From contig NC_007490.2 in NCBI RefSeq assembly GCF_000012905.2, positions 60,001 to 92,000 of the forward strand: a stretch of DNA of 32,000 nt. Reading direction: 5' to 3'. This DNA comes from Cereibacter sphaeroides 2.4.1 (GTDB lineage Bacteria; Pseudomonadota; Alphaproteobacteria; Rhodobacterales; Rhodobacteraceae). The notes below the pieces were generated by a model. It was not told the origin of the DNA. It saw only the letters and a program-made list of their open reading frames with translations, and did no database searches. This document shows, piece by piece, positions 27,068-30,000 of this stretch; position 1 is the stretch's first letter; every line of letters begins with the position of its first letter. Both the position numbers and the translations under genes were made by a program.

Positions 27068-30000
27068 ATGAGCGAAGGCTTGCCGTTAAAAGACGTACTT
27101 AATAACGTTAACGATGCTTTTGGAGAAATGCTTGAGCGCGTAGAGGATCAAGCCCTTGAATCAAAGAGGAATTTTAAGGATTGGCTTGCAAAGGCTGGCG
27201 AGAATTTCGCGGCCGATATCGGAATTACAGACCAGTTTGAAATCAACGGCGTCGTTCATGTCTATACGTCAGCGATGCACGCATACAAAATCCACAAGTC
27301 TTTTAGCTTCACCTTCGGCTGGATCAATGAGGTGCATAATATATGGGCAACCGAGGCGGACGTCATCTTGGACACCCGGAAGGACATCTACAACAACGTA
27401 GTCGGCCGCCAGATTGCTGAGTTCGCCGTAGATAACGGGTTTGGTCGCGACGTCGTCGAAAGCCTTCTAAGAGAGGCTATCAAACAAGATCTGGTGATCC
27501 TTAACGAATTTCTTGATCCACGCACGAAGTATTACCAGTCGCCACCAGAAATCGACATGGTGGATTTGTTTAACAAAGCCTATGAGGGACGCGCCGTCGC
27601 ATCCCTGAACGGCAGCGGAGGCGTCGATGTACACTCTCTGGTCGATGGGGCGCCTGGGGACAACGTCATCGGGGATGGTTACGCTTACGACTACAGCCTT
27701 GAAATGGAGAACCCCTACAGCGCGACTTACGACTCTGATGGGAACATCATTTCGTCCCCGAGGCCCGAGCCGAGGCCCGACGATTTCGATCCGACGGGCT
27801 CAGGCAACCAGTCCTCGAAGCCACTGATCATAGACATGGACGGTGACGGCATCGAAGTGTCGGCGGACAACACAGCAGACTTTGATTGGGATGCAGACGG
27901 CTACCTGGAGAACGGTAGCTGGGTTCATCCGGACGATGCCTTCCTTGTGATCGACCTGAACGCAAATGGAAGCAGGGGTGCCGGAGACGGTAAAATTAAT
28001 CAGGCGAAGGAGATTGCTTTCTCGCTCTGGACAGGTGGCAACCCCGACGACACCGATCTTCAGGCACTTGGCATTTTTGACCGTATCGCCAACGGCGGCA
28101 ACGGGAACGGACGGATCGACGCGGGCGATGCCATCTGGACTGAACTGAGAATATGGCAGGATAAGAACAGCGACGGCGTTGTGGATGGCGCGCTCGACAC
28201 GCCTGGCGGAGAACTCCACACACTGTCCTCTCTGGGCTTCAGTCGCATCAACCTGAGCTATGGCTCTGGGAGCTTCGGTGACGATTCTGACGATCAGGTG
28301 ACGACCGGGGCCGCCTTGTTGGGTCAAGCCTCATATGTGCGTAACGGTGTCACCACGCAAGGCGGCGTTGGTGACGTCGCTATCACCTTCAATCCGATTG
28401 GCTGGAAGAGGCTCCAGACCACTGAGGGCTATGATATCCGATTTGAGAACGGAGACAAACTCCGGTATGCCGTAGTCGCTTCAGGAGCGCCTGCGTCGGT
28501 TAACCTTGCATCTCTGGTTCTTGATGGCGCGGTCGGGGATGCGAGGGCCAATGCACTGGACGCATCCGGGCAGACCCGGCAGGTGCAGATCGCTGGTGGC
28601 GAGGGAGGAGACACGCTGCGGGGTGGTGCAAACCATGACATGTTGTCTGGAGACGGAGGTGCCGATGTCATCTACGGCAATGACGGGAATGACACACTGT
28701 TCATTGATGCTGCGGATCTCGCAAGTGGCATCGTAAACGGCGGACGCGGCCACGATACAGCCATCGTCTTAGGGTCGGAGGATGTCGTCCTTGACCTTCA
28801 GGCGCATTCGCTGGAGGCGGCAGCCGGCGGAGATGGCAACGACTCCATCTCGGGCGCGCAGCTTGATCTTAATCTCTACCTTCAAGGTGGGGCCGGAGAT
28901 GACAGCGTATCCGGTGGGTCAGGTGATGACACGCTGAGTGGTGATGCCGGCAACGACACGGTGCGAGGAGGGTATGGCGATGACACCGTTTTCGGGGCAA
29001 AGGGCAACGACAGCCTCCAAGGTCAGGCCGGCGATGATCTGCTTCTCGGTGGCGAGGGGGCCGATAGCCTGGAAGGAGGAGATGGCGATGACATAGGTTC
29101 CGGCGGTGCCGGAAACGACGTGATGACCGGGAGCAGTGGAGACGATCACCTTTCAGGTGATGACGGCGCTGACACGCTTGATGGCGGGATGGGGGACGAT
29201 TCCCTTGAAGGGAATGAGGGGAATGACCGCCTCCTTTACTGGCGTGGCGACGATACGCTGATCGGAGGTCTAGGAAACGATACGTTCGTTCTATCAACCA
29301 GTGCAGAGTATGGCTCCGCCAGCCATTGGGGCTGGGTCATCATGCAGGGTGGCAAGGGGCAAGACACCCTGGAGCTGATTGGTTCGAGCGATAGCTACTC
29401 GATCCGGAAGGTCGATGACAACCAGTGGCAGATCTACCGCGCCACGTCGGCATCAGCCAAAGTCGTCATCGACGCTATGGACATTGAAGTGCTCCGCTTT
29501 GGAGATGGTTCAACAAGGATCCTGTCCATCGACACATCCCTCGACACGTCTGCCGACTACGTTCGAAGCAACACCGATATGTGGGTTGGCGACAGCGCCG
29601 CCTCCATCCTCTTCGGCAGCTTTGTAGAGAATGGAACGTTGTTTGGCTGGATGGGAGAAGACACTCTGACGGGAATGATGTCGTCGGACTCGATCATTGG
29701 GGGAGAAGGTCGCGATACGGTCGATGGTGGCAACGGCAACGACAATATAAGCGGGTCAAGCGGCGGGGACTTACTCTACGGGAACGCCGATAAAGACACG
29801 ATATCGGGTGGGTCCGGCTCTGACAGCCTGGTCGGGGGAACCGGAGCCGACTCCTTGGTCGGCGGCACCGGAGCAGACCTGCTGCTTGGAGAAGCCGGTA
29901 TGGACACTCTGGTGGGTGGCGATGGGAGTGATAGTCTGGATGGCGGCGCCGACAGTGACGTCATTTACGGCAGCGGCGGATCTGATCTTGCATCCGGCGG

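Follow-up and report, generated by a model that had tools for sequence, protein, structure and literature searches.

The repeat-free N-terminal head of a large RTX protein encoded on plasmid pDE of Cereibacter sphaeroides 2.4.1 is, as judged from profile comparisons, a divergent Min-Wnt (Pfam DUF6973) domain, a Lipocone-superfamily member spanning residues ~30-155, and the protein as a whole is probably an antibacterial envelope toxin in which this head is carried by the RTX repeats, secreted by a type I secretion system (T1SS) and endowed with a predicted lipid-head-group chemistry. The explanation is built on homology, the conservation of the pocket residues, a helical model and the domain architecture; secretion, target, chemistry and immunity are predictions. 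The window, i.e. the whole stretch of 32,000 nucleotides that was analysed, contains the RTX gene with the following parts:

27068..31702, + strand: coding sequence of the RTX protein, 1544 residues from the ATG (RefSeq WP_011331491.1, annotated as 'calcium-binding protein').
27155..27532, + strand: core of the Min-Wnt/DUF6973-type (Lipocone) head, residues ~30-155, placed by homologue matches, the homologue alignment A1, the AF2 model and hhalign.
27551..27802, + strand: linker, residues 162-245, with no detectable family.
27803..28267, + strand: conserved Asp/Gly-rich module, approximately residues 246-400, marked by a 13-residue motif.
28595..31486, + strand: blocks of RTX nonapeptide (beta-roll) repeats, residues 510-1473.
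31487..31699, + strand: C-terminal tail outside the repeats, presumed to carry the T1SS secretion signal.

The first ~160 residues of the protein are repeat-free and, as the sequence-only reading had stated, also devoid of a signal peptide. Specifically, the strict GGxGxDxUx nonapeptides begin at residue 510, and the highest 15-residue Kyte-Doolittle mean is only 0.68 (first 75 residues), therefore neither a signal peptide nor a transmembrane (TM) segment is present in the head. The repeat blocks contain 30 strict and 51 relaxed GGxGxD motifs, and Pfam HemolysinCabind matches the protein with E 1e-110 in 28 stretches, all outside the head. The Asp/Gly-rich module, for which no Pfam model scores above threshold, is common to Hint-, PA14-, and RTX-domain proteins of Rhizobiales, Rhodobacterales, Sphingomonadales, and Pseudomonas. 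At the other end of the protein, residues 1416-1530 match the PueAB esterase model colinearly over positions 488-602 of its 616, and the C-terminal 115 residues are also colinear with the C-terminus of the serralysin model. RTX proteins secreted by T1SSs, including the serralysin proteases, the PueA/B esterases, and CyaA, likewise combine an N-terminal functional domain, a long GGxGxD block, and a repeat-free C-terminal tail in the absence of a signal peptide, and the Rhizobium RTX bacteriocins are further type-I-secreted proteins with an N-terminal functional domain. Unlike serralysin, PueA/B, and CyaA, the window protein carries at its N-terminus a putative Lipocone domain instead of a protease, lipase, or cyclase. 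Moreover, in contrast to such proteins, its gene has no adjacent ABC/MFP genes: cognate T1SS transporter genes of either kind are absent from the window, and none is annotated on the 153-kb pDE in the PLSDB gene table, which is incomplete.

A phmmer search of 1.84e9 proteins retrieved 33 genuine remote homologues (E 1.6e-8 to 1e-3) whose matches cover residues ~34-160, indicating that the signature did not arise by chance; a further entry of the list (P0010), a spurious repeat match to residues 165-197, was left out. Single-sequence searches with residues 1-201 returned only a sub-threshold PHP match in Pfam (E 0.06) and BcepMu_gp16 in NCBIfam (E 0.03), both judged to be noise, and gave no match by phmmer against the PDB or in a word-indexed search of 5.8e9 proteins. 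Against Pfam DUF6973 (PF22322; gathering score 27 bits), the window head gives nothing at E<=1, 25 of the 33 domain sequences in the alignment, 32 of which come from homologues, show weak matches (E<=1), and, among ten full-length homologues scanned singly, only P0013 (31.9 bits) passes the gathering score, with the others at 13-23 bits. The sub-threshold scores reflect the sensitivity limit of the model and are no evidence against homology.

The hhalign comparison of A1 with 25 published Min-Wnt sequences yields a probability of 99.0% (E 3.8e-18), with lower values against prok-SAA (95.9%) and metazoan Wnt (91.8%) that mirror the distances of Min-Wnt itself to both families, and the window head scores 30.3 bits against an HMM of these published sequences. 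In addition, WP_151040627.1, which is included in the authors' Min-Wnt file, shares the subtype motifs of the head at 33% identity (BLASTP E 2e-12). All of the 25 published Min-Wnt sequences match Pfam DUF6973 (best E 2.5e-46), so that Min-Wnt corresponds to this entry, and their consensus, DAFRHxxWxA...HE...MDLxNNxxGRxI, bears out the DUF6973 pattern that the earlier reading had given. In the Min-Wnt alignment A3, the same six positions (H, E, D, N, N, G) as in the head family show no variation, and the six invariant residues are kept from Alphaproteobacteria, Cyanobacteria, and Pseudomonas to Firmicutes and fungi, where sequence identity is ~25%. The head shares with Min-Wnt a predicted five-helix core, the His of helix 2 (H2), the Glu of helix 3 (H3), the Asp-x2-Asn-Asn-x2-Gly of helix 4 (H4), and a subsequent '...G.LI....D.R' tail. 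The two differ in that the subfamily of the head reads NAxxHxxTSA...(R/K/N)E...DxxxDxYNN in place of DAFRHxxW...HE...MDLxNN; the window head (V63-H64, N87-E88) lacks both the 'FRH' Arg and the 'HE' His, and the subfamily consensus at these sites is A-H and (R/K)-E. These absences, together with a Pfam model that misses the window protein and leaves most of its relatives below threshold, indicate a divergent subfamily left unannotated by Pfam.

The Min-Wnt family was described by Burroughs, Nicastro & Aravind (2025, eLife; PMC12419801) as a member of the Lipocone superfamily, predicted to comprise secreted toxins with exported immunity proteins, and its occurrence at the N-termini of RTX proteins, as T1SS toxins, has already been reported there; hence, the assignment describes a real arrangement, yet the family is a known one. 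A full-text literature search for 'DUF6973' or the protein accession returned no papers. The superfamily is marked by a His in H2, a Glu in H3, an Asp in H4 with one or more polar residues downstream, and a Gly in H4 (PMC12419801), a pattern that the following residues of the head fit:

27257..27259, + strand: H64, invariant His of helix 2, equivalent to the Lipocone H2 His and to BteO H144.
27329..27331, + strand: E88, Glu conserved in at least 90% of sequences, helix 3, equivalent to the Lipocone H3 Glu and to BteO E168.
27371..27406, + strand: helix-4 motif D102-x3-D106-x-Y-N109-N110-x2-G113, with D102/D106 aligning to BteO D187/D191.

The three motifs singled out from the sequence alone lie essentially where they had been placed, the 12-residue motif at residues 62-73 (27251-27286), with H64 at 27257 as stated, WINEVHN at residues 85-91 (27320-27340), and the 19-residue helix-4 motif at residues 102-120 (27371-27427), whereas their composition had to be revised: Y66 and the 'VH' (V89/H90) are not conserved in A1, and the conserved residue of WINEVHN is E88. 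The expected conservation of the H, E, and NN positions among homologues is confirmed, since N60, H64, D106, N109, N110, and G113 are invariant in A1 and E88 and D102 nearly so; other conserved positions are S68, A69, G84, and D150-x-R152. The core of the head is ~125 residues long, and no Cys occurs in the head.

The AF2 model obtained with the alignment (pLDDT 85, pTM 0.76; without the alignment, the pLDDT was only 45 and the model unusable) consists of helices H1 (residues 7-50), H2 (56-75), H3 (80-92), H4 (97-122), and a fifth helix (127-139), followed by the conserved D150-P-R152. The conserved residues fall on helices 2-4, forming a predicted pocket of the five-helix head with H64 on helix 2, E88 on helix 3, and D102/D106/N109/N110 followed by G113 on helix 4. 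The structure comparison proposed earlier gave a divided outcome: the best fold match in BFVD, with E 0.059, probability 1.0, and TM 0.46/0.53, is to a phage protein of the DUF6973 family, whereas Foldseek against the PDB returned generic helical proteins alone (E>=0.95) and did not recover Wnt, SAA, TelC, or BteO.

As judged from the profiles, the closest solved and tested relative of the head is BteO, which forms with BtiO a type VI secretion system (T6SS) effector-immunity pair of Bacteroides fragilis GA3 (He et al. 2025 PNAS; PMC12541434; PDB 9UU0). BteO is matched by the A1 profile with E 2e-5 and by the Min-Wnt profile with E 9e-15, and a BteO fragment scores 50 bits on DUF6973; the A1 profile also matches Wnt-3a weakly. 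The toxicity of BteO is confined to the periplasm, and the cognate immunity protein has a signal peptide (PMC12541434). Six residues are essential for its toxicity, which is abolished by the H144A, E168A, D187A, and D191A substitutions and also depends on R143 and H167 (PMC12541434); four of the six (H144, E168, D187, D191) align with H64, E88, D102, and D106 of the head, and R143 and H167 are replaced by V63 and N87. The delivery of the two proteins differs, as BteO is exported by the T6SS, has an N-terminal TM helix, and lacks RTX repeats, whereas the window protein has RTX repeats, no TM helix, and no T6SS locus.

According to the account of Whitney et al. 2017 given in PMC12419801, TelC, with its partner TipC, is a lipid II phosphatase of the type VII secretion system (T7SS) of Streptococcus intermedius. 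As described there, TelC is, like the head, a Lipocone protein, acts as a secreted antibacterial toxin solely outside the cytoplasm, and provides a chemical template in the cleavage of the undecaprenyl-diphosphate linkage. Unlike the head, TelC belongs to another Lipocone clade, is secreted as an LXG protein through the T7SS of a Gram-positive bacterium, and gave no direct sequence match. Metazoan Wnt proteins have a homologous helical core, with a remote profile relation to the head: their motifs xAFxHAxxSAGV and HNNEAGR align to a 10-residue motif of the head and to YNNVVGR. The catalytic residues are gone from Wnts, which serve as signalling ligands (PMC12419801). Wnts also carry large Cys-rich insertions and a lipidated Ser, whereas the head has no Cys and keeps the full polar set.

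Taken together with the Min-Wnt literature and the periplasmic activity of BteO (PMC12541434), the evidence supports the earlier suggestion that a T1SS-type carrier bears the head of a secreted effector or toxin. Most likely, the protein is an antibacterial toxin secreted by the type I route, with the head as the warhead that attacks the envelope of the target cell. The RTX protein would be made without a signal peptide, with the head at the N-terminus of a T1SS-style carrier, exported C-terminus first through an ABC/MFP/TolC system encoded elsewhere, and folded outside the cell upon Ca2+ binding. The head would then function as the warhead of a bacteriocin-like toxin, acting in the periplasm of the competitor or at a membrane surface, where, by analogy with the family predictions and TelC, its His/Glu/Asp pocket would most likely act on head groups joined through phosphate to carrier lipids such as lipid II or undecaprenyl-PP intermediates, cleaving or exchanging them. 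In the literature on Min-Wnt, BteO is the only member tested and enzymatic activity has been demonstrated for no member, and we know of no route by which RTX proteins enter the target periplasm.

The same family membership would also accommodate a toxin that is not an enzyme, a reading that is unlikely. In this case, the groove of the head (H64, E88, D102, D106) would bind the peptidoglycan-binding C-domain of OmpA-family proteins in the target periplasm, so that outer membrane and cell wall become uncoupled and the cell blebs and lyses, and the immunity protein would mimic the OmpA surface. The close relationship to BteO speaks for it, since BteO is reported to be non-enzymatic: it binds OmpA C-domains, its toxicity-dead mutants lose the binding, and it has no glycosidase or amidase activity (PMC12541434). 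Against it, two of the six essential residues of BteO are replaced in the head, and the retention of the six invariant residues across such distant taxa fits a catalytic site better than a protein interface that co-evolves. Moreover, the phenotype of BteO and the altered muropeptides fit an attack on lipid II as well, lipid-linked precursors being outside the assays performed (PMC12541434), and orf178, the gene upstream of the RTX gene, encodes no detectable OmpA-like domain.

A distinctly improbable alternative is that the head is a Lipocone enzyme that serves its producer, displayed at the cell surface on an RTX stalk, remodelling the producer's own outer-membrane lipids, LPS, or EPS carrier lipids, or acting on a eukaryotic or abiotic substrate. 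Large RTX proteins are frequently surface-associated, and the RTX gene is adjoined by no T1SS genes and no proven immunity gene. In addition, PMC12419801 assigns housekeeping functions in the metabolism of lipids, LPS, and EPS to many of the Lipocone families. However, the match of the head is specific to Min-Wnt, the diffusible, conflict-associated branch, and BteO is a proven toxin. Likewise, the gene sits in the compositionally foreign, variable cargo of a conjugative plasmid, adjoining toxin-antitoxin (TA) and defence genes, and some relatives of the head are fused to Hint autoprocessing modules of the kind typical of polymorphic toxins. Lastly, although some giant RTX adhesins have N-terminal retention modules and the single-sequence Pfam, NCBIfam, PDB, and word-indexed searches were blank, the idea that the head is a structural cap or retention plug of an adhesin, or its motif a chance resemblance, is effectively refuted by the highly significant profile matches, the invariant polar residues, and the occurrence of the same domain standalone, in tandem, TM-anchored, with Hint, CARDB, or Calx-beta, and in non-RTX proteins.

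An antibacterial toxin, the preferred reading, directs attention to the genes that precede the RTX gene, whose neighbours are F-type conjugation genes, a GNAT gene, and TA modules:

26087..26509, + strand: GNAT N-acetyltransferase gene, overlapping orf178 by 4 nt.
26506..27042, + strand: orf178, encoding a small exported protein with a signal-peptide-like segment from M23 (26572-26667; ...PLAAHA/Q).

The end of orf178 lies 25 nt upstream of the RTX gene, and the GNAT gene, orf178, and the RTX gene may form one operon. A promoter scan, with 4 promoter-like sites for 2.8 expected, and a terminator scan, which found none, carried no information. The exported product of orf178 is a weak candidate for the immunity protein and may protect the producer. 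Its position matches that of the small exported, lipoprotein, or TM ORFs located directly upstream in seven of 11 related loci (L002-L005, L007, L008, L012), which were found with a 6-sequence subset of the homologue alignment; RTX giants that start with the same head occur in Sphingomonas, Allosphingosinicella, Amphiplicatus, Beijerinckiaceae, and Pseudomonas. The product of orf178 does not belong to a recognisable immunity family: it has no Pfam match and no detectable OmpA-like or BtiO-like features, its homologues are confined to C. sphaeroides, and an HMM of the ORFs located upstream in the other loci gives it the top rank in a background of 950 ORFs, at a non-significant E of 0.21. A paralogue on plasmid pA, 85% identical, has no head nearby and is located upstream of an RHS toxin.

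The base composition of this region had been read as placing the head in the most AT-rich DNA of the window, which holds in that the GC trough includes the first half of the head, whereas the minimum (44.5%, a 483-bp stretch from 26861) starts in the 3' end of orf178, which the trough also covers. The GC content is 47.6% in the head, 63.3% in the window, and 59% in the remainder of the RTX gene. The low GC of the head is due mainly to its amino-acid composition; its GC2 is 0.30, and its GC3 of 0.565 compares with 0.58 in the orf178 3' end, 0.64 in the RTX body, and 0.80-0.91 in the neighbouring tra genes. Two scenarios of acquisition were rejected. The low-GC head and orf178 3' end do not constitute one swapped toxin-immunity cassette, because the DNA similarity to the pA paralogue stops at the orf178 stop codon and because the head and the remainder of the RTX gene differ little in GC3. 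Nor is a clean insertion of GNAT, orf178, and the RTX gene apparent from the comparison with a second tra copy on pDE, as the homology just ends at 25224 and the downstream TA modules cannot be aligned.

A broader proposal can be advanced tentatively, and its elements are possible rather than expected: the clade defined by NAxxH...(R/K)E...DxxxDxYNNxxGR...DPR in Alphaproteobacteria, Cyanobacteria, and Pseudomonas could be a distinct Min-Wnt lineage of bacteriocins acting as lipid-II/undecaprenyl-carrier phosphoesterases without the Arg and His of BteO. Its members would be delivered on a T1SS RTX stalk or released by an adjoining Hint module ('Wnt-like head + Hedgehog-type Hint'), and a rapidly evolving exported immunity protein would accompany them, with orf178 as one of its forms.

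The analysis turns a 'calcium-binding protein' of a C. sphaeroides plasmid into a predicted antibacterial toxin, whose head belongs to the family from which the animal Wnt proteins are thought to derive, and indicates that Pfam DUF6973 under-detects a whole subfamily. Although BteO has been read as a non-enzymatic protein, the residues that it requires fall on the predicted catalytic site of Lipocones, and the head keeps four of them. Given the genetic tractability of strain 2.4.1 and the location of the gene on a conjugative plasmid, the head offers a convenient system, alone or together with orf178, to distinguish an enzyme from a binder and a target lipid from OmpA, and to probe the T1SS delivery of an envelope-acting toxin. 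If the proposal of a distinct lineage is true, the pDE gene would be the first handle on whether Min-Wnt domains are enzymes, and it would challenge the 'non-enzymatic' view of BteO.

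The head, the N-terminal non-RTX domain (core residues ~30-155), opens an RTX protein in which a second conserved module follows; within the window the two features are:

27068-31702, + strand: CDS of the RTX protein, 1544 aa, WP_011331491.1, annotated as "calcium-binding protein" (ORF and plasmid record)
27803-28267: conserved Asp/Gly-rich module ("...FDWDADG..."), aa ~246-400 of the RTX protein, found again behind the head in further giant RTX proteins

The three peptides quoted from the head by the sequence-only reading lie where it had placed them, with H64 at nt 27257, and its description of a head devoid of nonapeptide repeats and of a signal peptide is confirmed: the first strict RTX nonapeptide is residue 510, none of the 28 HemolysinCabind stretches of the protein (Pfam, E 1e-110) falls in the head, and no hydrophobic segment was found at the N-terminus. 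The further claim that the head is the most AT-rich DNA of the window is only partly right, as its GC is 47.6% vs 63.3% for the window, but the true minimum (44.5%, a 483-bp window from 26861 in a window scan) straddles the first half of the head and the 3' end of orf178, the small ORF that ends 25 nt upstream of the RTX gene. Codon-position analysis indicates that the low GC of the head is largely amino-acid driven (GC2 0.30) and that codon usage is foreign throughout the GNAT-orf178-RTX block (GC3 0.57-0.72 vs 0.80-0.91 in the tra genes). The terminal part of orf178 contains a sigma-70-like promoter match (10/12; 26837-26865, +), ~200 nt before the RTX start codon; the count of such matches in this region does not exceed the shuffled expectation.

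The head is very probably a member of Min-Wnt, a family of the Lipocone superfamily that corresponds to Pfam DUF6973, although single-sequence searches of Pfam, NCBIfam, PDB sequences, and a word-indexed protein database were blank. An exhaustive phmmer search of 1.84 billion representatives recovered 33 genuine remote homologues (E 1.6e-8 to 1e-3, 26-43% identity), with the match almost always inside the first ~40-160 residues of the subject; P0010, a spurious repeat match, was excluded. In the resulting alignment, A1, N60, H64, D106, N109, N110, and G113 are invariant, and S68, A69, G84, E88, D102, A137, D150, and R152 are at least 90% conserved. The HxY...VH...DxYNNxxGR signature is therefore real and the H, E, and NN positions are conserved, but the conserved residue of WINEVHN is Glu88 and not the His, and Tyr66 is variable.

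Weak DUF6973 matches come from 25 of the 33 aligned domains, and one of ten full-length homologues scanned separately, a tandem-domain protein, passes the Pfam gathering score. Of the solved structures, the A1 profile matches one, 9UU0, in which a Bacteroides fragilis T6SS effector is fused to MBP (E 2e-5); it also matches Wnt-3a weakly, through the motifs NAxxHAxxSA and NNexGR. These matches pointed to the Lipocone superfamily paper (PMC12419801). There, prokaryotic Min-Wnt is the five-helix core of Wnt with a conserved His (H2), Glu (H3), Asp (H4), further polar position, and Gly. All 25 Min-Wnt sequences taken from its source data and aligned as A3 match DUF6973, hence the correspondence of the two families, and their consensus (DAFRHxxWxA...HE...MDLxNNxxGRxI) is exactly the DUF6973 pattern put forward by the sequence-only reading. 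By hhalign, A1 matches A3 at a probability of 99.0% (E 3.8e-18, 87 columns), prok-SAA at 95.9%, and metazoan Wnt at 91.8%; the last two values resemble those of Min-Wnt itself against prok-SAA and metazoan Wnt (96.5% and 93.7%, respectively). Moreover, the A3 HMM scores the window head alone at 30.3 bits, and WP_151040627.1, included in the authors' Min-Wnt list, is 33% identical to the head (E 2e-12) and shares its subtype motifs NAIAHVHTSA...KE...DTYKDQYNNEVGRRIAEYA...DPRI. The domain kind and its RTX fusion are already in the literature; what is new is a divergent, currently unannotated member.

The AlphaFold2 model of the head with A1 as input alignment (pLDDT 85, pTM 0.76) is helical (7-50, 56-75, 80-92, 97-122, 127-139), with H64 in the second helix, E88 in the third, and D102, D106, N109, N110, and G113 in the fourth. 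Foldseek returned nothing significant from the PDB; its top BFVD match comes from a phage and is titled "DUF6973 domain-containing protein" (E 0.059, probability 1.0, TM 0.46/0.53). The predicted fold is consistent with the family, not decisive.

In the GTDB species genomes, 11 loci with the head were recovered. Giant RTX proteins open with it in Sphingomonas, Allosphingosinicella, Amphiplicatus, Pseudomonas, and a Beijerinckiaceae MAG, where a Hint module follows; elsewhere, its partners are Hint modules alone or CARDB or Calx-beta domains, it can be present in tandem, and in cyanobacteria a TM helix precedes it. The head is fused directly upstream of Hint (Hedgehog/intein-type autoprocessing) modules at L006 725-1657, at L007 5716-10419 (in the order head, Hint, RTX), and in P0006, P0015, P0021, P0023, and P0029, which suggests that it may be freed by autoproteolysis via the adjoining module; the main text of PMC12419801 does not mention this combination. 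The Asp/Gly-rich module matches no Pfam family above threshold, its relatives P0005 and P0022 giving weak EF-hand matches only, and is also present in Hint-, PA14-, and "adhesin"-annotated proteins on plasmids of Rhizobium, Agrobacterium, Sinorhizobium, Phaeobacter, and Sphingobium. Cyanobacterial/Obscuribacterales homologues (L009 5734-6405, L010 5731-6411, L011 5719-6399, P0035) are short proteins whose N-terminal TM helix precedes the domain, an arrangement shared with BteO, the T6SS effector of 9UU0; in P0013, two tandem copies of the domain come after a hydrophobic N-terminus. In the Sphingomonadales MAG locus L008, the head ORF (5929-6960) has only 343 codons, diverges after "...DAVRN", and is followed by a separate 1631-codon ORF (7303-12198); the pattern suggests either a head-RTX gene disrupted by a frameshift or pseudogenisation or a fault in the assembly.

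The head DNA is 100% identical in five records of a ~153-kb plasmid (C. sphaeroides 2.4.1 and its laboratory derivatives), named pDE in NZ_CP030276.1. Upstream of the RTX gene are an F-type conjugation block (TraU...TraH, TraG_N), the GNAT gene, and orf178, a 178-codon hypothetical gene; downstream is an HTH/BrnT toxin-antitoxin pair. pDE has two F-type tra regions, and window 23188-25224 is 97.5% identical to the paralogous copy (L013 6000-8036); the homology stops at 25224, 22 nt before the traG stop, and gives way to complete divergence, which places the GNAT-orf178-RTX block in variable cargo downstream of traG. At its C-terminus, the TraG_N protein (1136 aa, window 21836-25246) has a cell-wall hydrolase domain of the SleB type (Pfam Hydrolase_2, E 7e-13). 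Directly past the RTX gene (window 31887-32000, incomplete; L001 16820-23415), the HTH/BrnT pair, an ImmA/IrrE peptidase gene, and a nucleotidyltransferase and SAVED-domain pair (CBASS-like defence) place it in a plasmid conflict/defence island. The annotation of pDE lists no T1SS transporter genes, so export, if any, must use chromosomal genes.

In 7/11 loci, the head gene is preceded by a small ORF that stops at its start or overlaps it and encodes a signal peptide, lipobox, or TM segment. This arrangement fits the finding that immunity proteins of Lipocone toxins are membrane-anchored or periplasmic (PMC12419801). orf178 shares this position and has a signal-peptide-like segment, making it a weak candidate immunity protein for the head; it has no match in Pfam, and against an HMM of the upstream ORFs of the other loci its score ranks best, yet is insignificant (E 0.21). 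Alternatively, orf178 may have no connection with the head, or may be immunity-like but orphaned or shared. Its homologues are confined to C. sphaeroides, and a paralogue with 85% identity is present on plasmid pA as well as in ATCC 17029 (pRSPH01) and KD131. On pA, the GNAT 3' end and whole orf178 (window 26364-27042) are duplicated at 90% DNA identity (L015 7860-8537), the homology ending exactly at the orf178 stop codon; in pA and ATCC 17029, the copy is followed at a distance of 1.6 kb by the gene for an RHS polymorphic toxin of 1687 aa, and the vicinity contains no head.

The proposal of a secreted effector or toxin gains support from Min-Wnt/DUF6973 membership and from BteO, a toxic relative. 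BteO (PMC12541434) is the closest experimentally studied relative of the head; it kills only from the periplasm, with elongation, blebbing, and lysis, is neutralised by a signal-peptide immunity protein, and loses toxicity upon R143A, H144A, H167A, E168A, D187A, or D191A substitution. Judged by profile matches (50 bits for the aligned fragment on DUF6973; E 9e-15 with the Min-Wnt profile), it is a clear family member. Its authors attribute its action to the non-enzymatic binding of OmpA C-domains; the sections consulted report no assays on lipid-linked substrates. For these same positions, the Lipocone paper predicts a role in catalysis on phosphate-linked head groups of lipids, with lipid II cleavage by TelC as precedent, and a literature search found no paper joining the two views. 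H144, E168, D187, and D191 of BteO align with H64, E88, D102, and D106 of the head, and these 4/6 toxicity-essential residues coincide with the predicted Lipocone catalytic positions, whereas in place of R143 and H167 the head has V63 and N87. From sequence comparison, an enzymatic action would be favoured for this head, because lineages and architectures that are very far apart all retain the polar set, whereas two BteO "interface" residues are not kept. The head is fairly likely to be the warhead of a secreted toxin that acts on the envelope, with a T1SS-type protein as its carrier; that its chemistry is directed specifically at lipid head groups is a more tentative proposition. For the chemistry of bacterial Wnt-like toxins, the head would make a tractable model.
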